Source: a virus
Strand: one strand, 5' to 3'
DNA: 64,000 nt
Virus genome (UHGV): UHGV-0277313
Below are positions 5,189 to 64,000 of this stretch, in pieces. A program made the position numbers and the translations under genes. Each line of letters starts with the position of its first letter. The first letter of the stretch is position 1. The notes under the pieces are model-generated. The model searched no databases. It was not told the DNA's origin and saw nothing but the letters and a program-made list of their open reading frames with translations.

Positions 5189-7068
<1,880 letters not shown>

Positions 7069-37123: not shown

Positions 37124-38311
37124 ATGATTCGTAGCTCTGCATTGACGTTAAAATTTGCAACAAGCAAAAAGTTGAACACATTGGATTTGGTGTTCAATGA
37201 ATATGCCCGTGTTGTGAATTTGTATATTGATGCCTTGAATCAAACAAAAGTACTGCCCAAATTTACTAATTTCAAAATGGGTACTTGGCTATCAGCCAGA
37301 TTGCAACAATGCGCTGGCAAACAAGCAACTGAAATTGTGAAATCCACAAGGAAGAAAGACAAAGAGATTCGTTTAAAGAAATACAAGAAAATCTATAAGT
37401 ATTTCTTAAATACACAACGGCAAAAGAAATTTATTGGTAAGAAATTCAGTGAATTAAATCTAAATTACAAAATAAAACCAAGATTTGATGGTAAAACAAT
37501 CAATTTGGATAATAGGTTTTGGTCTTTAAATACATCAACCAACTCATTTGATTATTGGGTTAAACTTGGTTCCATTGGTAATAAAATTGGTTTATTGCTT
37601 CCATTGAAAGAGCATAAACATAACAAGAAATTCAGTAATTGGAAACGAGCTGGTTCTTGCCGTCTGCTGAGAAATAACGGGAAATTTAAGATAGAGTTAA
37701 TTTATGAAAAAGCAACTCCTGTTATTCATAAACCAAATAAAATACTTGCAATAGATGCTGGAATTAATTGCCTGATGTCTTGTTCTGACGGGCGTCAGAT
37801 TGGATTGGAATTAAAGAAACTACTAAATGAACTTAACAAGAAACAACAAAAATCAAAATCATACAATCGCAAATTGAATCAGATACACAACTACGTCCGT
37901 TGGTGTGTCAATCAATTGGATTGGAGTAATCTGTCTGATTTGGTTATTGAAAATCTAAAATATATTCAGATTGGAACAAAACAAAAAGTGAACAAAGCAA
38001 CCCGTAGGTTGCTTTCTAAATGGAATTTGGGTTTATGGCATCGCGCTATAGAACAGAAATGCGAAGCAAACTGTGTTTGTTTGCATTATGTTGAACCTAG
38101 ATACACAAGCCAGACTTGTCCGCGTTGTGGTAACGTGGACAAGGGGAATCGGGATGGTGTGTTGTTTAGATGCACAAGTTGCGGCTATGAAGCCAATGCA
38201 GATTTGAACGCGTCTATCAATATACTGAACCGATTTCGTCAGGAGAGGTTGAATTTATCAGCCGATATAGTCCCTGATATGGCAAAAGCTGATTTCATTG
38301 TTTTTCATTAA
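37124..38311 (+). CDS. tnpB: IS200/IS605-family TnpB (OrfB) RuvC-like nuclease, orphan (no tnpA)
   Basis: RuvC-I (ILAIDAGIN); RuvC-II glutamate (DLVIENLKYIQ); zinc finger (CPRCG...CTSCG); RuvC-III (NADLNASINIL); GC visibly higher than flanking phage DNA. Confidence 0.8.
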   Translation: MIRSSALTLKFATSKKLNTLDLVFNEYARVVNLYIDALNQTKVLPKFTNFKMGTWLSARLQQCAGKQATEIVKSTRKKDKEIRLKKYKKIYKYFLNTQRQKKFIGKKFSELNLNYKIKPRFDGKTINLDNRFWSLNTSTNSFDYWVKLGSIGNKIGLLLPLKEHKHNKKFSNWKRAGSCRLLRNNGKFKIELIYEKATPVIHKPNKILAIDAGINCLMSCSDGRQIGLELKKLLNELNKKQQKSKSYNRKLNQIHNYVRWCVNQLDWSNLSDLVIENLKYIQIGTKQKVNKATRRLLSKWNLGLWHRAIEQKCEANCVCLHYVEPRYTSQTCPRCGNVDKGNRDGVLFRCTSCGYEANADLNASINILNRFRQERLNLSADIVPDMAKADFIVFH

Positions 38312-38330
38312 AATTGGAGACTATAGCGGG

Positions 38331-39284
38331 ATGAATATTTTAGTTACTGGTGCTGCTGGTTTTATTGGTTCACATTTGTTTAATAAGTTGTGCAACAATA
38401 AACATACAGTTGTTGGTATTGATAGTTTTACTGGCGATCTTTCTTTAAAAGATATTAAAGAATCTAGAGTTGATAACTTTTTAAGTAAAAGTGGTTTATT
38501 TAAAAAATGTGATATTTTTGATGAATATCTAAATACATTATTCGAACAATATAAATTTGATGTTGTGATACATTTAGCAGCACATTCAGGAGTTCGTGCT
38601 AGTCTTTTAGCACCTGAAGAGTATTATAGAAATAATGTTTTAGGTACTAATCATTTACTAAATCTGATGGTCAAGCATGATTGTAAAAACATTGTTTTTG
38701 CTTCATCATCATCTGTATATGGAAATTGTAAAGATGTAGAATTTAAAGAAACTGCGGTAGGTTTAAAACCTATATCACCGTATGCAGCAACAAAATTGGC
38801 ATGTGAAGAAATGCTTTTTACATATCATAATTTATATGAAATGAATGTTTCATGTTTACGTTTCTTTACTGTATACGGTCCAGAACAAAGACCAGATTTA
38901 GCAATACATAAATTTACAAATAAAATTCTTAATAAAGAAGTTATCAGTGTATTCGGAGATGGTCATAATGTTCGTGACTATACATATATTGATGACATTG
39001 TGAATGGAATCGTTTCTGCTATAAATTATACAGTCTATAATAAAGACGTTTACGATATATTTAATTTAGGTGGTGGAGAGCCTATTAGCATAACTGAAAT
39101 GATTCGTGTGATTGCTTGTAATTTAGGAGAAATTCCTGAAGTTGTTCATGTGTCAATGCAACCTGGTGATGTTGAAAAAACAGTTAGTAATTGTGATAAA
39201 GCAAAAGAGTTGTTAGGGTATTCCCCTAAAGTATCTTTTAATGATGGTATAAAAGAATTTTTAAAATGGAAGTTAAAACATTGA
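38331..39284 (+). CDS. NAD-dependent nucleotide-sugar epimerase/dehydratase (SDR family)
   Basis: ILVTGAAGFIGSHL Rossmann motif and YAATKLACE (YxxxK catalytic pair); ATG at 38331 with GGAG RBS (tracked start 38298 is a TTG inside the tnpB 3' end). Confidence 0.8.
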   Translation: MNILVTGAAGFIGSHLFNKLCNNKHTVVGIDSFTGDLSLKDIKESRVDNFLSKSGLFKKCDIFDEYLNTLFEQYKFDVVIHLAAHSGVRASLLAPEEYYRNNVLGTNHLLNLMVKHDCKNIVFASSSSVYGNCKDVEFKETAVGLKPISPYAATKLACEEMLFTYHNLYEMNVSCLRFFTVYGPEQRPDLAIHKFTNKILNKEVISVFGDGHNVRDYTYIDDIVNGIVSAINYTVYNKDVYDIFNLGGGEPISITEMIRVIACNLGEIPEVVHVSMQPGDVEKTVSNCDKAKELLGYSPKVSFNDGIKEFLKWKLKH

Positions 39285-40081
39285 ATATTTTGTATTCACT
39301 CGATGATAATTTCATTAATTATACGAAGACATCAATGTTGTCTTTATTAAATAATTCAAAAGAGTTCGTGAATTTTTATTTGTTAACAAATTCAGAAGTT
39401 ATTAGTGAAAAAGATTTTGATGTCTTAAGAAGAGTTCGAGATTGTAACATTAAGTTAGTTTTTGTGCCTGAATCAAAATATAAGTTTTTAGAATCAAGAA
39501 AAATGTTTCAGCATTTAAGTGTGGCAACGTATTTTCGTCATTTTGCATCAGAATTAATAGAAGATGTATCAAAAGCTGTTTATATAGATTCAGATACTTT
39601 AATTGTTAGTGATATAAATAATATACTTAATGAAAATGTTGGAAGTTTTGAGTATGTACGTGGTGTAGAAGATGCCGCATCAGAAAAGAAAATGAAATTG
39701 TGGGATATAAATAGATACATAAATGCAGGTGTTTTGTTAATGAATCTAGATTATGCAAGAAAAGATTTGAATGAGTTTTATGAAAAGATTGCATACTTTT
39801 ATCAAAGATTCGGAAATAAAACAATATCTGGCGATCAGGATATGTTAAATTTTGTATTTAGACCAAAGTATATTCCATTTAGATATAATTTATATCATCC
39901 TTTTTTTAATAAACAGTTTGTACCAGCCAGTTGTTCACAAGATGTTTATTACGAAGAGTGTAAAACACCTGTTGTTATACATTTTGTTGGTAGTAGAAAA
40001 CCGTGGATAAGTGACGTTACTCATCCCTATAAAAGTTTATGGGAAAGTACGTTTAATTTATTGCAACATTTAGATAATTAA
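39266..40081 (+). CDS. glycosyltransferase family 8 (LPS alpha-1,3-galactosyl/glucosyltransferase-like)
   Basis: LNILYSLDDNFINYTKTSMLSLL N-terminal signature, YIDSDTLIV DxD motif, INAGVLLMNL and GDQDMLN motifs typical of GT8 (RfaJ/LgtC type). Confidence 0.75.
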   Translation: MEVKTLNILYSLDDNFINYTKTSMLSLLNNSKEFVNFYLLTNSEVISEKDFDVLRRVRDCNIKLVFVPESKYKFLESRKMFQHLSVATYFRHFASELIEDVSKAVYIDSDTLIVSDINNILNENVGSFEYVRGVEDAASEKKMKLWDINRYINAGVLLMNLDYARKDLNEFYEKIAYFYQRFGNKTISGDQDMLNFVFRPKYIPFRYNLYHPFFNKQFVPASCSQDVYYEECKTPVVIHFVGSRKPWISDVTHPYKSLWESTFNLLQHLDN

Positions 40082-40132
40082 GGGTTTGTTCTTTAATTCA
40101 GTTGTTTTTAATTTCTATTTAGGTGATTTAAT

Positions 40133-43488: not shown

Positions 43489-45876
43489 ATGTCTGATCTA
43501 GTTTTTCAAGATTTAATTTCTAAAGATCCTAGCGTTCTTGTATTGTTCGATAAATTTGATTTTGATGATGTGAAAAAATCCAAAGCATTTACATCATCAG
43601 CAGCACGTGGGATTTTAAAGGATATTTATAGTCGCGGTTTTACGAATAATTCCGTCTGTGCGATGTATGTTAAAAATACAGCAGTGTTTGATTTCGATGG
43701 TAATTTAGAAGTATATCGTTTACCAAATGAAAAAGCAAAATCAAAAGGTCAGATTATTGTTAATGAGAAGGATAAAGCCGATTTTAAAAATAGACTTATT
43801 GCGCTATTAATGAGAAACGACTTCAAGTCTTTAATTATTTTAGGGAGAGAAGTTGCGAATGTACTGCAAGAGTTTGGATTTTATGGAGCTGGAAGTTGTT
43901 TAGATACAGCTAAAGAGATTAATTTTGTAGGCAATAAAGTTTTAACAATTGAAACTGTCAGTCCTTTAGAATATTCTTTAGGTTTGACTGAAAGAAATAA
44001 GTTCATTTCAGCAATAGATCAGATTTATTCGACACAGTATGAAGTCACATCTATTGATAATGCAAGTTACGTTGATATTGATACGTTTGCAGGGTATCTT
44101 CGTAAACTTGAAATATTATACGATAATAAAAAGATTGACTGTATGGGTTTTGACTATGAGACGAATTGTTCAGAGTGGTCAGTTCCGTGGGCGAAATTAG
44201 TTGCAGTTTCTTGTTCTGATCGTATTACAAATCACGCTTTTTCGTGTGCGTTGTATCATCCTGAAAAGATTATGCACCCTCGCAAAAAGACTTTGTTAAA
44301 GTGGTTGTTTGCACACATCTTTACAGAAACATTGACAACAAATGAAGAGTATATCAAGCTTGCAAAGAAGTTAGAGCATTTTTATAAAGATGTTTATCCT
44401 AGAATTGAGGAGTTACCGTATAAAGAAGTTCTGAATGACGATGAGTATTTTGTTCTAGAATCTTTGCCTGATTTGGTAAAAGTGTTTAAGAAAGCTGCAA
44501 AAAAGGCTTTTGAAGAAAAGACAAAAGCACATGAAGAATATAAAAAACTTATTTTTGAAGCGGTTAAACGTCTGACGTTTTTAATAAACGATACAGAGTA
44601 TCCGAAAAAGTTGCATGATTTTTATTATTTGCTAGATAAGGTTTTATCAAAAATTCCTGTTGTAGGACACAATATTAAGTTCGATATTGGTTGGTGTGCA
44701 AACATGTGTATTGGTTTGCGTAATTTACGTGTTAAAGCCGATACATTTGGTCAAGCTGTTGCTGTAATGGGGCAAAATTTAGGGACAAAATTAAATCTAG
44801 AATCGTTATCAGTTGACCTTTTAGGTGTTGAGAATAAATGGAAATCAGCATTTCATGCATCACCTCGTTTAGGTAAAGGATCAAAGTTACGTTTTGATCG
44901 TGTTCCTTTAAAGTTGTTAGGACCTTATTCTGCAGCGGATGCTATTACAACAGATTTATTGGATGAATACTTCCAAAAGAAAATGGAAGGTCAACCTATG
45001 AATCTTGTTGAAAAGGAACAAAACATTGCTATTGTCATGTTTTCTTTAGGTGAAGTTCATGGTTTTTCTATACATCCTGAAACAGAAACAAAATTGTATA
45101 AATGGGTTAACAATGGGTTAAGAGATTTACGTAATCAATTAGTTCAGCTTCCGACAGTAAAACGTTTTGTTGAAGATAGAAAGCAAGAGTTGCCTGAAAA
45201 GGAAGCAAGTTTATTTGAATTTAATACAAACACTTCTGGTGCGCAGTCACATAATGCAGCTGTTTTATTCAGGAAAGAATACTTTGGTCTAAAGTCATTA
45301 ACATCAACAGATTCAGGTTATCCTTCTGCTGATGCAGATACTTTAAAAGAGATAAAGAAACAATTGAGTGTTTCAATTAAACAATTTGAAACTGCTAAAT
45401 TAGGTGAAAAAGTTTATTGTGATAATAATGGTGAATTAATTACAAATAAAAATATTGATCGTTTTAAAGAAGCATGTACTTTTTGCGATAACTTGATTAA
45501 AACATCAGGGTTTAGTCAGTTAAACAATATGTATTATAAAGTTTCGTATGATGAGAAAAATGATCGACCTTTAGATAAATTTATTGCAGTATTTAAATTG
45601 GTAGGTGCAACAAAAACAGGACGATTGTCTTCACGTTTTCATTTAGCACCTAAAACAGGCGGCGTGCGATATGTTTATTGTTCAGCGTGGTCAAAAGATA
45701 ATATTCGTAAATATCAGTTTTCGCATGAACCAGGTGTTCGTTATGAACCTTTGTATGGCTTAATGGATGTAGTTTATGAAGACGGTACAACAGAAAAAGT
45801 GTCATACGGTGATTTATTAAATCGTGGTTATACAAAAGACGAAATAGAATCTATTTATAAAGCTAATCAAGTGTAG
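43489..45876 (+). CDS. family A DNA polymerase, N-terminal piece (3'-5' exonuclease, thumb and part of fingers)
   Basis: Exo I (MGFDYETN), Exo II (VGHNIKFDIGW), Exo III (YSAADAITTDLL), then the Pol I-type KTGRLSS motif near the C-terminus; the ORF stops before palm motif A (no DYSQIELR). Confidence 0.65.
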   Translation: MSDLVFQDLISKDPSVLVLFDKFDFDDVKKSKAFTSSAARGILKDIYSRGFTNNSVCAMYVKNTAVFDFDGNLEVYRLPNEKAKSKGQIIVNEKDKADFKNRLIALLMRNDFKSLIILGREVANVLQEFGFYGAGSCLDTAKEINFVGNKVLTIETVSPLEYSLGLTERNKFISAIDQIYSTQYEVTSIDNASYVDIDTFAGYLRKLEILYDNKKIDCMGFDYETNCSEWSVPWAKLVAVSCSDRITNHAFSCALYHPEKIMHPRKKTLLKWLFAHIFTETLTTNEEYIKLAKKLEHFYKDVYPRIEELPYKEVLNDDEYFVLESLPDLVKVFKKAAKKAFEEKTKAHEEYKKLIFEAVKRLTFLINDTEYPKKLHDFYYLLDKVLSKIPVVGHNIKFDIGWCANMCIGLRNLRVKADTFGQAVAVMGQNLGTKLNLESLSVDLLGVENKWKSAFHASPRLGKGSKLRFDRVPLKLLGPYSAADAITTDLLDEYFQKKMEGQPMNLVEKEQNIAIVMFSLGEVHGFSIHPETETKLYKWVNNGLRDLRNQLVQLPTVKRFVEDRKQELPEKEASLFEFNTNTSGAQSHNAAVLFRKEYFGLKSLTSTDSGYPSADADTLKEIKKQLSVSIKQFETAKLGEKVYCDNNGELITNKNIDRFKEACTFCDNLIKTSGFSQLNNMYYKVSYDEKNDRPLDKFIAVFKLVGATKTGRLSSRFHLAPKTGGVRYVYCSAWSKDNIRKYQFSHEPGVRYEPLYGLMDVVYEDGTTEKVSYGDLLNRGYTKDEIESIYKANQV

Positions 45877-52789: not shown

Positions 52790-54784
52790 ATGAAGCAAGT
52801 AATAAAACGCGATGGAAAAGAAGTTAAATTTAATTTGAAAAAGATTGTATCGGCTATTCGTAGGGCTGGAGAGTCTTCTGGTGAATTTGGTTATGACGAA
52901 GCTTTAGATTTAACAAATTCAGTAATTCAAATGTTTGATAATAAAGAAAAAGCAACTGTTGAAGAGATTCAAGATGCTGTTGAAAAAGTGTTGAATGAAA
53001 ATAATTACACAAAGACAGCACGCGCTTTTATTGTGTATCGTGAAAAACATAATGATATGAGAAAAGATAATAATGTAATGATTGATGCTGTTCAGTCAAT
53101 TGATGATTATCTTGATCGTTCAGATTGGCGTGTAAACGCTAACGCAAATCAGGGGTATTCTTTAGGTGGTATGATTCTAAATACTTCTGGTAAAGTAACA
53201 GCAAATTATTGGTTGAGCCATGTGTACCCTAAAGAAGCTGGTGAAGCACATCGTAATGGTGATATACAGATTCACGATTTAGATATGTTAGCAAATTATT
53301 GTACTGGATGGTCATTGCGTGCATTGCTTCAGGAAGGCTTTAACGGTGTTAAAGGTAAAGTTGAAAGTAAACCACCAAAACATTTAGCTTCAGCTTTAGG
53401 ACAAATGGTGAATTTTTGGGGTTGTTTACAGAATGAGAATGCAGGTGCACAGGCATTTAGTAGTTTCGACACATATCTTGCACCTTATGTTCGTAATGAT
53501 AAATTGACATACAAACAGGTTTATGATGCTATTCAGGAATTTGTATTTAATGTGAATGTTCCTTCAAGATGGGGAACACAGACGCCTTTTACGAACATTA
53601 CATTAGATTGGACATGTCCGGAAGATTTGAAGGATTCACAACCTATAATTGCTGGTGAAGAGATGGATTATACATATTCTGAACTTCAACCAGAAATGGA
53701 CATGATTAATAAAGCCTTTATTGAAGTCATGATTAAAGGTGATGCACATGGACGTTTATTTACATTTCCTATTCCGACATATAATATTACACCAGACTTC
53801 CCGTGGGAAAGCGAAAATACAAAGTTGTTGTTCGAAATGACGGCAAAGTATGGGTTGCCGTATTTTCAGAATTTCTTGAATTCAGATTTGAAAGTTGGTG
53901 ATGTTAGAAGTATGTGCTGTCGTCTTCAACTTGACTTGCGTGAAATTAAAAAACGCGGTGGCGGTCTATTTGGTTCAGGGGAACAGACAGGTTCAATTGG
54001 TGTTATAACAATTAACTGTGCGCGTTTAGGGTATCTGTTTAAGAATGATATAACAGGTTTATATAAACGTTTAGATGAATTGATGAATATTGCTAGAAAT
54101 GCATTAGAACAAAAAAGAAAGTCATTAAATAAATGGATGGAGCAAGGTTTGTATCCTTATTCTAAACGTTATTTAGGTGGTTACAACACTTTGTTTTCAA
54201 CGATAGGAATTAATGGTGTAAACGAAATGATTCGTAACTTTACAAACGATGAACATGATATCACAGATGACTATGGACAGAAGTTTGCAATGTCTTTAAT
54301 GGATCATATTAATGAGGTGTTAAAACAATTTCAGGTTGAAACTGGTAATTTATACAACTTGGAGGCTACGCCAGGAGAAGGAACTACTTTTAGGTTTGCG
54401 AAAGAAGATAAAAAACGCTATCCTGAAATTATTCAAGCAGGAAAACCTGAAGCACCTTATTATACAAACTCAACACAGATACCTGTTGGGTATACAAATG
54501 ATCCATTTACTGCATTAAATCTGCAGGAAGGTTTGCAGAGACGCTATAGTGGCGGCACAGTTGTACACCTTTACATGGGAGAAGCAATGTCATCATCAGA
54601 TTCTTGCAAGACTTTAGTGAAGCGTGTTCTGGAGAATTATCACATTCCATATTTAACAATTACACCTACGTTCTCGATTTGTCCTAAGCATGGGTATATC
54701 TCAGGTGAACATAAATATTGTCCTATTTGTGATGAAGAGTTAACTTCACCAAAGCAAGAGCAATGTAAAGCTTGTAAGGGTTAA
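52790..54784 (+). CDS. nrdD: anaerobic ribonucleoside-triphosphate reductase NrdD, catalytic core lacking the glycyl-radical loop
   Basis: N-terminal ATP-cone (VIKRDGKEVKFNLKKIVSAIRRA); NrdD blocks GGG(L)FGSGEQTGSIGVITINCARLGY and CCRLQLD; C-terminal zinc ribbon CPKHG...CPICDEE...CKAC; ORF stops at ...QCKACKG*, where NrdDs normally continue R-x-C-G-Y-L-G. Confidence 0.85.
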   Translation: MKQVIKRDGKEVKFNLKKIVSAIRRAGESSGEFGYDEALDLTNSVIQMFDNKEKATVEEIQDAVEKVLNENNYTKTARAFIVYREKHNDMRKDNNVMIDAVQSIDDYLDRSDWRVNANANQGYSLGGMILNTSGKVTANYWLSHVYPKEAGEAHRNGDIQIHDLDMLANYCTGWSLRALLQEGFNGVKGKVESKPPKHLASALGQMVNFWGCLQNENAGAQAFSSFDTYLAPYVRNDKLTYKQVYDAIQEFVFNVNVPSRWGTQTPFTNITLDWTCPEDLKDSQPIIAGEEMDYTYSELQPEMDMINKAFIEVMIKGDAHGRLFTFPIPTYNITPDFPWESENTKLLFEMTAKYGLPYFQNFLNSDLKVGDVRSMCCRLQLDLREIKKRGGGLFGSGEQTGSIGVITINCARLGYLFKNDITGLYKRLDELMNIARNALEQKRKSLNKWMEQGLYPYSKRYLGGYNTLFSTIGINGVNEMIRNFTNDEHDITDDYGQKFAMSLMDHINEVLKQFQVETGNLYNLEATPGEGTTFRFAKEDKKRYPEIIQAGKPEAPYYTNSTQIPVGYTNDPFTALNLQEGLQRRYSGGTVVHLYMGEAMSSSDSCKTLVKRVLENYHIPYLTITPTFSICPKHGYISGEHKYCPICDEELTSPKQEQCKACKG

Positions 54785-59539: not shown

Positions 59540-59554
59540 ATAGATGACAATAAA

Positions 59555-59597
59555 AATAACGGGTTTCTTAATTGAAACCCGTTATTTTATTTTTTAT
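59555..59597. terminator. bidirectional rho-independent terminator between convergent genes
   Basis: 13-bp stem aataacgggtttc/gaaacccgttatt (59555-59567/59574-59586), loop ttaatt, T-runs on both flanks. Confidence 0.7.
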
Positions 59598-60025: not shown

Positions 60026-61097
60026 TTATTCAGCAGCAATTGCTGAAACTTCCGTATGTTTGAAAGCAATATTTTCTTTGAAGTATTTGCGTTCTTCAAA
60101 TTCTGATTTCTTTCCAACATTGAAGTTTTCGTATGGACGGAAATACTTAATCGACTATTACTTCAGATTTATCTGTTGTTTCGTTTAGTCTGTCAAGGTA
60201 GCTTCTAGCAATACCATAATTTCTTTGTAATAGGTATCGAGGTTTGCCGTCGTACATAAAGTTAATAAGTTTCAGGCATTCAGATTGATTAAAACGTAAT
60301 CTAAACAGTTTACCGTTTGTAACAATCTTTTTTGTTTCATTTATTACTTTATGTCTTACTAAAATACTTTTTACATTTTTTAGTACAGGCATGTAACCAA
60401 TAATTTCTGCAAACAGATGGTTGTTATGTAAACCGTCATAATAAAAAGAACCGTCGGCATCAAAAAGACCTCTGATAAAATCTTTTGAGATTTCATCTTG
60501 TAACAGGTCTATATGAATATCTCCACGGTCTTTTTTAAGTTTTGTTAATTCATAGCGTTTTAAAGCTTTATGCAACTTCCAGCTTCGAATTTCAAAACCA
60601 CATGATGGGTATTTATTTTTAGCAAGGAAACGTTTAATCGGTTTATCACTACCAATAAAATTTCTAAAATTGGTTAATAAATTTATATCCTTTTCAGCAC
60701 AACATATTCTGATTTTATTTTCTGTTGTACAGTTTCCTTCACCGTATAAATAACCAATCCAATATGCAGATTCATGATTTATACAATCAAACACTTGTTC
60801 ATTAAGTGTATATTTTCGTTTGTTCATTTTTACATCCTTTCGGATAAGTCTTCCGACTTGAGCTTTCCTCATCGTTACTTTAATGTTTAATTAAAGCTTT
60901 CGATTATTATTAGAAACAATTTTATTTGGGCTATTTCACTTATGCGCACCCATGACGCGGGTCCATACTTCTGTTAACTGATGTTTATTGCCATCTTTCA
61001 TAGTGACAATTTGTTCAGTTTCATCGTAGTCTTCAATTTCATTGAAATCTTTGACTCCCTTTAGGCGCAACAACGCCATCTTTTTTTCATTTAACAT
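60026..61097 (-). CDS. small glycyl-radical subunit completing NrdD (GrcA-like), split by a group I intron
   Basis: exon 1 (61097-60948, RBS GGAG) encodes MLNEKKMALLRLKGVKDFNEIEDYDETEQIVTMKDGNKHQLTEVWTRVMG; exon 2 (60145-60029, stop 60028-60026) encodes YFRPYENFNVGKKSEFEERKYFKENIAFKHTEVSAIAAE; the junction recreates RVMG-YF, the glycyl-radical signature, and the tail parallels E. coli NrdD ...RTCGYLGNPNERGFNLGKNKE...; unspliced exon 1 would read ...RVMGAHK*. Confidence 0.6.
60146..60947 (-). mobile_element. putative group I intron (802 nt) carrying a LAGLIDADG homing-endonuclease ORF
   Basis: 5' exon ends ...AUGGGU; intron begins GCGCAUAAGUGAAAUAGCCCA; GCCCA (60931-60927) pairs with exon UGGGU (P1, U.G at the splice site); adjacent AAUA (60935-60932) pairs with the first 3'-exon bases UAUU (P10); last intron nucleotide is G (60146); core P3-P9 not verified. 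Confidence 0.5.
60147..60872 (-). CDS. LAGLIDADG-family homing endonuclease (intron-encoded)
   Basis: two LAGLIDADG motifs (YWIGYLYGEGNC and IRGLFDADGSF); alternative start MNKRKY at 60827 with AAGGA RBS; its stop abuts the intron 3' end. Confidence 0.75.
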   Translation of the reverse strand: MRKAQVGRLIRKDVKMNKRKYTLNEQVFDCINHESAYWIGYLYGEGNCTTENKIRICCAEKDINLLTNFRNFIGSDKPIKRFLAKNKYPSCGFEIRSWKLHKALKRYELTKLKKDRGDIHIDLLQDEISKDFIRGLFDADGSFYYDGLHNNHLFAEIIGYMPVLKNVKSILVRHKVINETKKIVTNGKLFRLRFNQSECLKLINFMYDGKPRYLLQRNYGIARSYLDRLNETTDKSEVIVD

Positions 61098-61905: not shown

Positions 61906-64000
61906 CTATTCTTCACGTTTACCATAAAAACCGTTGCCGACAAAATACTTGCTTTTGAAATCCATATTTGGGCAAGGATCTTCAAATTCAAGCTTCAGTG
62001 AAATAAGTTGTGTCGGGACTTCAATAGGTAACTCTTCACGTTCTTCTGGAGGGATAGGGTCACCTTCTTTCATCTCAAGTATTTTGTAGTCGTATGCTTC
62101 ATCAAGTTCACGTTTTAAATAATCCCAATTGCAGTTGCCTCCCTTGATATTTAAAATGAATTTACCATCCTTCTCTTCAAAAGATTTAATATCCATTTCA
62201 CGTCCCCATGATTGACCTAAACCAAAATCAATGAACATTTTGTTTCCGTTCATCCAATCATAAATAACATTTGGTACCGTACCTGCATGAAATTGACAAA
62301 TCTTAAAAACTGGAATTAATTCACCTGGGTATATGTCAAGATATGTTGAATCATGAACACCACCAATCATTACTGATTGTAAATCGTGCATCAACATCTC
62401 TTCTGCAATATGTGTACCTGCAATCCATGCCATACGGCTAGCGGATGAATTGTGTACAAAAACACCAGCTTCTAATGCGAAATTGTGTGTATTTTCATTG
62501 TTTTCAACTTCAATATCATATACTGAAATTTTGTTTGGTAGTTTAATTACTTCAACAGATGTAACTTTATGGTTGTTGAATAATTCTGCTACTAAACGTT
62601 CATAATTTTCTTTTGAAAAGTGCGGAACACTTGAAGCTCTAGCTCCTTCATTAATATAAGACAATCTGTATTCTTCAAAAATATTTTCGAAAGAAGAATC
62701 TAGTAATATATTTTTACCAAGTTTTTCAATAATTTTTAAAGAAAGTTTTTTGAACTTATAAAAAGTTGTATTCTTTCCACATTTTCTGATATTATTTTTC
62801 ATATGCTGTATCTTTTCTAGATCATTACCTTTCCAAATTTTATTTATTGTTTTTCTGGCAGATTCAGACAATTGTTCTTTAGACATACAGAATGCATTTC
62901 CATATGTTTCAATGCGTTTTTTTACCAAAGCTTTAACTGCTTCTCTTTGGTTAAAATCCCAATCTTTATAAAGTTCTTTTCTTTTTTTATTTTTTTCAGC
63001 CATTAATTTAGATTGTTTTTCAGAATGTTCTTGTGTTAAAAAATGTTTCCAAATATTGTTTTCACGTTTGCCTTCTCGTATTTCACGTACACGTTTTTGA
63101 GTGTCAATACTACGTTGTTTTGAAGTATATTTCAAACCCATTTGACGTAAATATTCGTGAACAGATACACCTGTCAGGTCAGCATGTCTTTTAATAGTAG
63201 ACATTACAAGAGATGAATGATATTTTATATGTTCTGCCTTATCCATAATAAGTAAATTATCAGGGTTGTTGTTTAATTTGTTGAAATCTTTGTGATGTAC
63301 TGCTTCATTTTTTTCAATAGTACGATCATAATATTTACTTACTATACGATGTACAGAGGCCCAAGGTTTTGTAGTTAAATCATTTCTTTTAACATATTTA
63401 TACCCTAACTTGTCATATTTTGTATAACAAGGCATTAAGCTTTCATTATTTTTTAAATCGATAGCATGTTTATATGTTCCATCCCTTAACATAAACTGGT
63501 GTTCAGGTGTGCATGTAATAATTTCGCCAGAATCTAATGTAACTTTACAAATTGTGTCAGTTTCTCCAGATTTAAAAGCGTTAATAATTTTGCCAGGTAT
63601 AATTTTACCATCATTACAACAAGATAAAACATACTTATTTTCAAAATTATTCACAAGGTTTTGAATTTCAACAACACTGCCATCTAATAAAGGTATTTTA
63701 GTATCACCAACAAAACATTGGATCCCACTATTCTGGCTTGCATTCATAGCATGATTCAACAACTTCCTGTTGCTTTTAGTGTCAGGCAACATTGCATCTG
63801 GTAACGGTCTAGTACAACCAAATACGTCAACAATATATCCATGCTCACGGGCGAACTTGTGTTGATATTCAACGTATGTTTTAATACCAGGGTATGCCCC
63901 CATCATTTTATCAATAGTTTCTTGAGCTTCTTCGACAGTGCATCCCCACTCTTTTGAAAAGTTGTAGGCTGATTTTCCATAGAGTAGACCAAACATTGTT
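61906..64000 (-). CDS. family A DNA polymerase, C-terminal piece (O-helix/motif B and motif C), intein-containing; 5' end beyond the window
   Basis: MFGLLYGKSAYNFSKEWG = Pol I motif B (NFGxxYG); then ...NASQNSGIQ [intein] SSASRMAWIAGTHIAEEM...GGVHDSTY (motif C, VHDE-like); the reading frame stays open to the window edge. Confidence 0.7.
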   Translation of the reverse strand, partial: TMFGLLYGKSAYNFSKEWGCTVEEAQETIDKMMGAYPGIKTYVEYQHKFAREHGYIVDVFGCTRPLPDAMLPDTKSNRKLLNHAMNASQNSGIQCFVGDTKIPLLDGSVVEIQNLVNNFENKYVLSCCNDGKIIPGKIINAFKSGETDTICKVTLDSGEIITCTPEHQFMLRDGTYKHAIDLKNNESLMPCYTKYDKLGYKYVKRNDLTTKPWASVHRIVSKYYDRTIEKNEAVHHKDFNKLNNNPDNLLIMDKAEHIKYHSSLVMSTIKRHADLTGVSVHEYLRQMGLKYTSKQRSIDTQKRVREIREGKRENNIWKHFLTQEHSEKQSKLMAEKNKKRKELYKDWDFNQREAVKALVKKRIETYGNAFCMSKEQLSESARKTINKIWKGNDLEKIQHMKNNIRKCGKNTTFYKFKKLSLKIIEKLGKNILLDSSFENIFEEYRLSYINEGARASSVPHFSKENYERLVAELFNNHKVTSVEVIKLPNKISVYDIEVENNENTHNFALEAGVFVHNSSASRMAWIAGTHIAEEMLMHDLQSVMIGGVHDSTYLDIYPGELIPVFKICQFHAGTVPNVIYDWMNGNKMFIDFGLGQSWGREMDIKSFEEKDGKFILNIKGGNCNWDYLKRELDEAYDYKILEMKEGDPIPPEEREELPIEVPTQLISLKLEFEDPCPNMDFKSKYFVGNGFYGKREE
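62449..63717 (-). mobile_element. intein (423 aa) with HNH homing-endonuclease domain inside the DNA polymerase
   Basis: starts CFVGDTKIPLLDG (block A, Cys1), TCTPEHQFML (block B TxxH), HNH domain AVHHKDFNKLNNNPDNLLIMDKAEHIKYH, ends ...VYDIEVENNENTHNFALEAGVFVHN followed by +1 Ser; precisely in-frame between conserved pol motifs. Confidence 0.7.

Follow-up and report, generated by a model that had tools for sequence, protein, structure and literature searches.

Family A DNA polymerases (PolA) are usually single polypeptides, and the stretch of the virus genome UHGV-0277313 analysed here (64 kb, 64,000 nt; henceforth ‘the window’) raises the question of how such an enzyme can be made when its motifs are encoded by two genes on opposite strands. 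The plus-strand gene at 43489-45876 (the N-gene) encodes the exonuclease motifs and ends before polymerase motif A, and a minus-strand gene running off the end of the window (the C-gene, in-window part 61906-64000) encodes the later polymerase motifs. The window is part of a 277-kb genome and overlaps the metagenomic jumbo-phage contig ERZ28615576 scaffold_19 (276,920 bp; L001) by 12,376 bases with 0 mismatches, and the flank of the C-gene was read for ~8 kb beyond the window. We conclude that the two genes probably encode the two subunits of one SP15-like family A polymerase, which would be assembled non-covalently from separately encoded polypeptides.

The N-gene encodes a protein of 795 aa. 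Its translation bears out what the first-pass annotation had read there, namely Exo I (FDYETN; D222/E224), Exo II (HNIKFD; N395/D399), Exo III (YSAADA; Y480/D484) and KTGRLSS (aa 709-715, nt 45613-45633), followed by a stop (...KANQV) with motif A absent. When conservation was scored in an alignment with ~50 contiguous homologues, the motif residues were found to be invariant or almost so. The protein opens with a uracil-DNA glycosylase (UDG)-fold domain (aa 1-184; 43489-44040), which is followed by a 3′-5′ exonuclease domain (aa 215-500; 44131-44988) with Exo I-III on invariant alignment columns and a helical insert (Insert 1, aa ~264-388) modelled as helices at 264-277, 285-307, 317-333, 340-367 and 370-388. 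Next come a thumb with a second helical insert (Insert 2), seen in the alignments and in the model, and the motif 2 KTGRLSS with its invariant R712 (together 44989-45693), and finally a C-terminal tail (aa 736-795; 45694-45876) that consists of a beta-hairpin (LMDVV/TEKVS) and two short helices and ends at a TAG stop. Directly after KTGRLSS the protein reads HLAPKTGGVRYVYCSAW, the counterpart of the strand that contiguous polymerases have before the motif A strand. The N- and C-proteins were modelled separately, and the N-protein model has a predicted local distance difference test score (pLDDT) of 90.5; within its tail, strands at 758-762 and 768-772 and helices at 773-778 and 783-794 are placed with moderate confidence (pLDDT 70-85).

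Between 61906 and the window edge the minus-strand frame stays open; it reads TMFGLLYGKSAY... and, further on, GGVHDS, in agreement with the motif B and VHDS motifs first noticed there. The complete C-gene, which occupies L001:7560-9923, encodes 787 aa and starts at the equivalent of 64269, 269 nt past the window end, so that the window holds aa 90-787. Its product begins MEIKNKNFAKKKIKSLTRHNGGGIIVSYDYSTLEIR, and 28 aa precede motif A (DYSTLEIR, aa 29-36), which had been presumed to lie at this unseen 5′ end. The full gene on the source contig encodes no exonuclease domain and is therefore not a second, complete exonuclease-polymerase gene, the alternative that sequence past 64000 could have revealed. 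Motif B reads RSKAKSTMFGLLYG, with conserved columns R85, K89, F93, Y97 and G98. The first extein segment in the window (aa 90-184; 63718-64000) carries the rest of motif B (K89, STMFGLLYG) and the fingers as far as NSGIQ, and the second (61906-62448) carries motif C (VHDS, nt 62347-62358), a C-terminal domain of ~120 aa and the stop. After splicing, the product would be a 364-aa core of palm, fingers and C-terminal domain with motifs A, B and C, in which H216/D217 of motif C (spliced numbering) are invariant. An intein-free allele of this protein matches Pfam DNA_pol_A (PF00476) with an E value of 1.8e-37. The model (pLDDT 90.5) matches the palm and fingers of the Bst, Klenow and Taq enzymes in Foldseek searches (E ~1e-17), and the best sequence match in the PDB is to residues 828-1107 (of 1142) of the phiLo DNA polymerase (9qhs_A; E 8.6e-24). 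The first 22 residues (the C-head) score below 50 and appear disordered in the stand-alone model; the C-head is lysine-rich with a conserved KKIKxI.

In the first-pass annotation the whole minus-strand open reading frame (ORF) of the window was taken as polymerase, and the intein that accounts for 423 of its 696 in-window residues was missed. This intein (62449-63717, minus strand; 423 aa) is bounded as NSGIQ/CFVGDTKI...VFVHN/SSASR, and with its Cys1 (CFVGDTKI), block B TPEH, terminal VHN, Ser+1 and HNH motif (~63229-63354) it has all the sequence features of a class 1 intein with an HNH endonuclease (Pfam Intein_splicing, E 7e-18; HNH_3, E 3.8e-7). It is predicted to excise itself in cis, which would convert the 787-aa precursor into the 364-aa protein. 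The precise empty junction (NSGIQSSASR) is present in two relatives, L003 and L004, the intein-free proteins being 362-364 aa, and in L005, L006 and L012 this site holds mini-inteins of 140-153 aa. Across the alleles compared (L001-L006, L012 and P0002-P0021), three C-gene sites vary in intein content: one within motif B, after aa 90 (inteins of 135-142 aa), one after ~aa 179 (149-194 aa) and one after aa 184 (140-423 aa). All three are filled in P0018 and none in L003 and L004. An intein of another kind, a split one, occurs in the N-gene of a relative that carries P0020, at TGR/SS (L018:5300-5810, and L019; contigs of 145-148 kb). There, a 900-aa N ORF ends in an N-intein fragment (CLLGETLID...), and an uncalled ORF that overlaps its stop (ATGAGAATTAA) encodes ~40 aa of extein (SNFHLVPRHGGIKCMYTSQW...) behind a C-intein fragment (...GIFVHN). 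As read from these ORFs, the polymerase of L018 and L019 would be built of three or four pieces.

Are the two window products parts of one enzyme? The closest cultured relative, Pseudomonas phage QdP_Psa3, was the best match when 50,697 phage records were searched with tblastn, a search that returned only contiguous distant relatives, and its polymerase is a contiguous protein of 1066 aa with which both window products are collinear. Residues 211-754 of the N-protein align to QdP_Psa3 residues 164-711 and residues 8-299 of the C-protein to 747-1024; the leftover 41 N-piece and 7 C-piece residues span the 35 QdP_Psa3 residues in between, with no loss and no duplication. Judged by these alignments, the two products are collinear with the contiguous SP15-like polymerases of ~1000-1100 aa, and the event is a clean fission. 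The residues that are invariant among the contiguous homologues (those of Exo I-III, Arg of TGR, Asp/Glu of motif A, Arg/Lys of motif B and His-Asp of motif C) are all kept, divided between the two halves. The cut thus falls, as had been proposed, downstream of the TGRLSS region and ahead of the remaining polymerase motifs, and more exactly ~80 aa after TGRLSS, ~295 aa after Exo III and before the motif A strand. In canonical, insert-free PolAs this region reads ...TGRxSSxxHTxPxxxDIKRxFxSRF-(3 aa)-GGLIxxxDYSQLE, whereas in the lineage of the window a variable insert of 20-70 aa stands where these enzymes have the three-residue turn, and the gene is cut at the end of this insert. Consequently, the N-protein keeps the strand VRYVYCSAW and a hairpin-and-helix tail, and the C-protein consists of the lysine-rich head and then the motif A strand. 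The N-tail is collinear with QdP_Psa3 residues ~690-746 and matches the subfamily-specific insert of contiguous relatives, and the N-genes of L010 and L017 end in the same tail element. We considered whether KKIKSLTRHNGGG in the C-head could be the canonical ‘IRxAF’ palm strand, which would make it a duplicated strand, and rejected this: it belongs to the insert, and the ‘IRxAF’ strand is VRYVYCSAW of the N-protein, because this is how the insert-bearing QdP_Psa3, P0022 and P0030 sequences align.

The N- and C-genes are convergent, on opposite strands and 16,030 nt apart, and a palindromic hairpin that resembles a terminator marks the junction of their two blocks (59553-59588; 15-bp stem with 5 GC pairs, an A-run before and a T-run after), close to where a bidirectional terminator had been proposed (59555-59597). 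A second hairpin of this type lies on the minus strand at 60012-59966. Since the window comes from metagenomic assembly and the blocks meet at a palindrome, the arrangement could in principle result from a mis-join near 59.6 kb, or from an inversion in one strain that runs through an otherwise contiguous polymerase gene. We give this explanation next to no credence. The gene order across this point recurs in contigs of 277, 297 and 309 kb that derive from different samples and submitters, GenBank LR756497.1 being among these independent assemblies (the sister contigs are 225-309 kb long), and the exact N-protein is present on 15 contigs. A search of the literature for LR756497 gave no match. 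Both genes also have ordinary ends: the ATG of sbcD (SbcD) lies 6 nt past the TAG of the N-gene, and the ATG of the C-gene overlaps the stop of the gene upstream as ATGGAAATAA. Moreover, the breakpoint is identical where the two genes are adjacent.

Such adjacent halves are found in L010 and L011, two independent contigs whose C-protein is 37% identical to that of the window: an 800-aa N-gene and a 368-aa C-gene follow each other on one strand and are joined by the N stop, a 64-nt AT-rich spacer and AAGGAG-N8-ATG. Of the two origins first offered for the split, an inversion through the gene or a genuinely two-subunit polymerase, the second is supported, and the inversion fails as an origin given this adjacency on a single strand. 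That the same breakpoint occurs with adjacent halves in L010 and L011 implies that fission came before dispersal. Among homologues more broadly, N-proteins at 46-99% identity are all 785-803 aa long, and C-proteins down to 37% identity, inteins ignored, start within ~8 residues of the same position, with two exceptions: P0020 starts ~18 residues later and P0015 (~56% identical) ~90 residues upstream. Relatives at 46-48% N-identity share the gene context HU, dUTPase, N, sbcD, FEN, sbcC and have no C-gene within 10 kb of the N-gene. In two further lineages the order is N, a 67-aa ORF that overlaps the C start, and C (L017:5801-6004; L018:5805-6008); the two 67-aa ORFs look alike by eye, show no similarity to each other by BLASTP and have no match in PHROGs. 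A scan of IMG/VR added one close relative and L023, which is the same contig as L018. In a neighbour-joining tree, the main split clade (the window clade, the L010 clade and P0020) has 96% bootstrap support and sits in a wider group (96%) that also holds contiguous enzymes, and the split L017 enzyme groups (91%) with the contiguous QdP_Psa3, P0030 and P0038. This placement suggests that the loop was cut independently a second time, in a case known from the single contig L017. Finally, the contiguous polymerase genes of QdP_Psa3 and Maribacter phage Molly adjoin sbcCD; because the N-gene here does so too, it was probably the N-gene that kept the ancestral locus and the C-gene that moved.

In cyanobacterial DnaE and in the PolB of Nanoarchaeum equitans, halves encoded by distant genes (in Synechocystis, dnaE halves on opposite strands) carry intein fragments at their termini and are ligated by protein trans-splicing. 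We therefore considered whether the halves in the window are joined in the same way. Inteins abound in the phage group, a single C-gene among the relatives holding as many as three; L018 and L019 have their split intein in the N-gene; and the C-head holds ‘RHN’ followed by GGG. However, the N-tail and C-head are collinear with the insert of contiguous homologues, which leaves no intein-sized sequence to spare, and neither the N-protein nor the intein-free C-protein has a Pfam Intein or Hint match. A C-terminal intein fragment would not fit into the mere 19 residues ahead of the ‘HN’ in the C-head; this HN is followed by Gly and not by Cys, Ser or Thr, one of which splicing requires; and HN itself is not conserved, relatives reading KPVKGGG or VAHKGGG. 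The split intein of L018 is at another site and does not bridge the break between N and C. In contrast to the DnaE and PolB halves, then, the N/C termini here are without intein fragments, and the sole intein of the window is of the cis type and lies inside the C-gene. We regard trans-splicing as very improbable. As for splicing at the RNA level, the window and L001 gave no Rfam match at the gathering thresholds, and there is no spare sequence at the gene ends in which introns or RNA trans-splicing elements could lie.

Selection bears on two other explanations, of which the first is that the halves are non-working relics and that another polymerase, of the phage or of its host, replicates the genome. 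The sequence analysed covers only 64 kb and the ~8-kb flank of the 277-kb genome, the C-gene has been invaded by mobile elements, and in the UDG-fold domain GEAPG has given way to FDKFD and HP to VS, so that neither catalytic motif is left; this domain also has no Pfam UDG match and is without the Cys cluster that relatives have. On the other hand, compared with an 88%-identical orthologue the N-gene has a dN/dS of 0.068 that is uniform over its domains (~0.07 in every one; UDG-fold domain 0.064, tail 0.085), and non-synonymous change in the C-gene is strongly constrained (pN 0.13; pS 0.77, saturated). In addition, all catalytic residues of the exonuclease and the polymerase are intact, both ORFs are full-length over lineages ranging from 37-46% to 99% identity, and the intein retains every splicing motif. 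We thus consider relics highly unlikely. Because strong purifying selection persists on the UDG-fold domain despite its lost motifs, a non-catalytic role is indicated, and this domain is probably a structural or DNA-guiding module and not an active glycosylase. The second explanation gives the two proteins independent functions, with N as a stand-alone proofreading or repair exonuclease combined with a DNA-binding scaffold and C as a minimal polymerase with some other partner. It agrees with the location of the two genes in different, convergent transcription blocks. Yet the N-protein keeps its whole thumb and TGRLSS, the C-protein is without a thumb and without one palm strand and begins with 22 residues that are disordered when it is alone, and the two genes co-occur in every lineage of which enough sequence was seen. 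Independent functions are unlikely because the thumb and the TGR motif would be useless without a palm.

The two-subunit reading is thus the one we favour, and it allows a plausible division of labour. The N-subunit would contribute the probably inactive UDG-fold domain, the exonuclease for proofreading, the thumb and TGRLSS for primer binding; it would also provide the palm strand that is the usual pairing partner of the motif A strand. The C-subunit, once its intein has been excised, would contribute the catalytic carboxylates (motif A Asp29 and motif C Asp217), the fingers with the O-helix of motif B, and the C-terminal domain. The break lies in a surface loop between neighbouring palm strands, a loop that already bears a variable insert in contiguous relatives, and the subunits would most likely dock by completion of the palm beta-sheet, probably helped by the N-tail, with its hairpin and acidic helices, and by the C-head. 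Several points weigh against this reading or parts of it. That the two proteins bind each other and polymerise together is something we infer. Another replicative polymerase could be encoded elsewhere in the 277-kb genome, of which 64 kb and the ~8-kb flank were seen; the large ORFs of the window that were scanned (chaperonin, structural proteins and four ORFs without a Pfam match) included none. There is no clear Shine-Dalgarno sequence at the C-gene start, which was set by gene calls and conservation; the tree is a simple neighbour-joining one, built from 286 columns of the C-region; and the link from homing endonucleases to the fission is circumstantial.

With regard to history, we propose that a contiguous gene beside sbcCD, as in QdP_Psa3 and Maribacter phages, would first have been divided at its original position, perhaps when mobile DNA inserted into it, which would give the state still seen in L010, where the halves are adjacent. 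The C-half would then have been relocated and, in the window clade, would have become translationally coupled to an upstream homing-endonuclease-like gene, with the N-half staying beside sbcD, FEN and sbcC. Either event, the fission or the relocation, may be the work of mobile endonucleases, by analogy with the ‘genes in pieces’ of other phages, an analogy that is suggestive only.

Mobile elements, established or putative, are found around the C-gene and elsewhere in this phage group. The gene upstream of the C-gene, which encodes a DUF7487 protein of 375 aa (L001:6442-7569; equivalent to window ~64260-65387, minus strand), overlaps the C-gene start by 10 nt, matches homing-endonuclease families in PHROGs (phrog_3339, E 3e-14; phrog_12131, E 2e-7) and is upstream of the C-gene in all window-clade loci seen (L001-L006 and L012). 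The idea that it forms one mobile cassette with the C-gene was rejected, since tblastx shows L012 to be syntenic with the window save for insertions. About 1 kb downstream of the C-gene, the minus-strand ORF at 60147-60872 (241 aa) has two LAGLIDADG-like motifs (YWIGYLYGEGN and IRGLFDADGSF) and, by these motifs, is probably a free-standing homing endonuclease. Genes for TnpB/OrfB_IS605 (Cas12f-like) proteins lie at L002:8713-9918, L002:12188-12730, L007:3636-4823 (window ~37124-38311) and L015:6002-7237, and one of those in L002 is inserted immediately downstream of the C-gene. The window also encodes the anaerobic ribonucleotide reductase NrdD (52790-54784, plus strand), which is 664 aa long here and 808 aa in LR756497.1, with orthologues at L003:17046-19472 and L020:18817-22385. 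In L020 the gene falls into ORFs of 649 aa and >1186 aa with Intein_splicing and LAGLIDADG matches, which makes nrdD one more intein-invaded, perhaps split, essential gene of this phage group.

How does the proposed enzyme compare with known systems? The SP15-like PolAs (phiLo, YerA41, SP-15 and RP13; PDB 9QHS and 9QLH) are defined by an N-terminal UDG domain, by helical inserts in the exonuclease (Insert 1) and the thumb (Insert 2), and by a ~80-aa C-terminal domain of beta-beta-alpha and then beta-long loop-beta topology, by which the palm sheet is extended (Missoury et al., bioRxiv 10.1101/2025.03.26.645540), a report in which split members are unmentioned. The window enzyme has the same domain order (UDG-fold, exonuclease with Insert 1, thumb with Insert 2, palm/fingers, C-terminal domain of ~80-120 aa). 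Its C-terminal domain (aa ~257-340), which lies inside the 9qhs_A match, consists of strands, one helix and a strand-loop-strand element (strands at 257-262, 268-277, 280-288, 305-315 and 331-340; helix at 289-302). It has the exonuclease motifs of a PolA, with the consensus forms DxE (Exo I), NxxxD (Exo II) and YxxxD (Exo III), and the polymerase motifs 2 (TGR), A (DYSQxE), B (RxxxKxxxFGxxYG) and C (HDE/S). It differs in that known SP15-like members are single chains of 1,100-1,300 aa, whereas here there are two unlinked genes and an intein, and in that the UDG motifs, which are conserved in an active domain in phiLo and YerA41, are degenerate. The nearest precedent for a divided PolA is that of the T7-like cyanophages S-SBP1 and S-TIP37 (clade B), in which the enzyme is split into exo and pol proteins encoded by adjacent genes (Czernecki et al. 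2023, PMC10201439; PMC12695635; PMC10580990); the S-SBP1 pair was modelled as a complex, predicted to reassemble and reported in 2023 as the first PolA split (PMC10201439). Both cases involve a phage PolA fissioned into two polypeptides that are thought to reassemble, but the cyanophage cut falls at a domain boundary between adjacent genes of one strand, and the present cut falls inside the palm, with the genes convergent and 16 kb apart.

Among other polymerase families, a split gp43 (family B) is known from T4-like phages; gp43A and gp43B of Aeromonas phage 25 co-purify and polymerise, which gives active split polymerases a precedent, and they belong with the corresponding genes of phage 44RR, nrdA/mobE of Aeh1 and gene 39/60 of T4 to the ‘genes in pieces’ (PMC2988022). 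Like the enzyme described here, these are essential replication enzymes in two polypeptides with homing endonuclease genes at or beside the cut; gp43A/gp43B differ in belonging to family B and in being adjacent, parted only by an endonuclease gene or a short untranslated spacer. Group 2.2 jumbo phages encode a minimal Pol III alpha in two distant genes that is predicted to be reconstituted (Iyer et al. 2021, PMC7824862). This, too, is a jumbo-phage polymerase catalytic module from two distant genes, although it is a C-family, Pol-beta-like nucleotidyltransferase that accompanies a family B replicase. In the literature searched we found no published PolA cut inside the palm, no dispersed PolA halves and no split SP15-like enzyme. 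The only published PolA split that we found is thus the exo/pol division in adjacent genes, and a palm cut with dispersed halves, as deduced here from gene sequences, would be new.

Further observations concern the gene content around these loci. The window has no tRNA genes. It encodes a GroEL-type chaperonin (Cpn60_TCP1, E 1e-61) at 5470-7068 (plus strand). A pair of genes for a sugar epimerase and a glycosyltransferase 8 protein lies near the dUTPase gene, in the 38298-40100 region of the window (from L007:4843-6593), and a dCMP deaminase is encoded beyond the window. Since SP15-like polymerases have been linked to hypermodified thymidine, DNA modification in this phage is of interest.

Split replicative polymerases are rare natural experiments that show how much cutting an enzyme can bear before it stops working. 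In the present case a cut inside the catalytic palm appears to be tolerated and, under strong purifying selection, to have persisted throughout a deep clade of metagenomic jumbo phages, and the halves of a polymerase can evidently drift to different places and strands of the genome. The finding would add a split member to the SP15-like polymerases, a group associated with thymidine-hypermodifying phages, and the break may serve as a natural permissive site for the engineering of split PolA enzymes. It also exposes an annotation trap, in that the 795-aa protein is only an ‘exonuclease’ in Pfam and the 364-aa protein looks like a truncated polymerase. The load of inteins and homing endonucleases makes the C-gene a good system in which to study the fragmentation of essential genes by mobile elements. 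The enzyme is likely to surprise polymerase and phage specialists and is directly testable, and it introduces no new principle. More tentatively, and as a view that we hold to be possible but rather doubtful, this could be the first natural PolA palm built from two polypeptides of unlinked genes, with the split adaptive and not merely tolerated, and the palm loop between TGRLSS and motif A could be a recurrent fission site that was cut at least twice and probably opened by mobile DNA. If that were true, an active replicase in these phages would hinge on three independently controllable steps, namely the expression of each half, splicing and docking.

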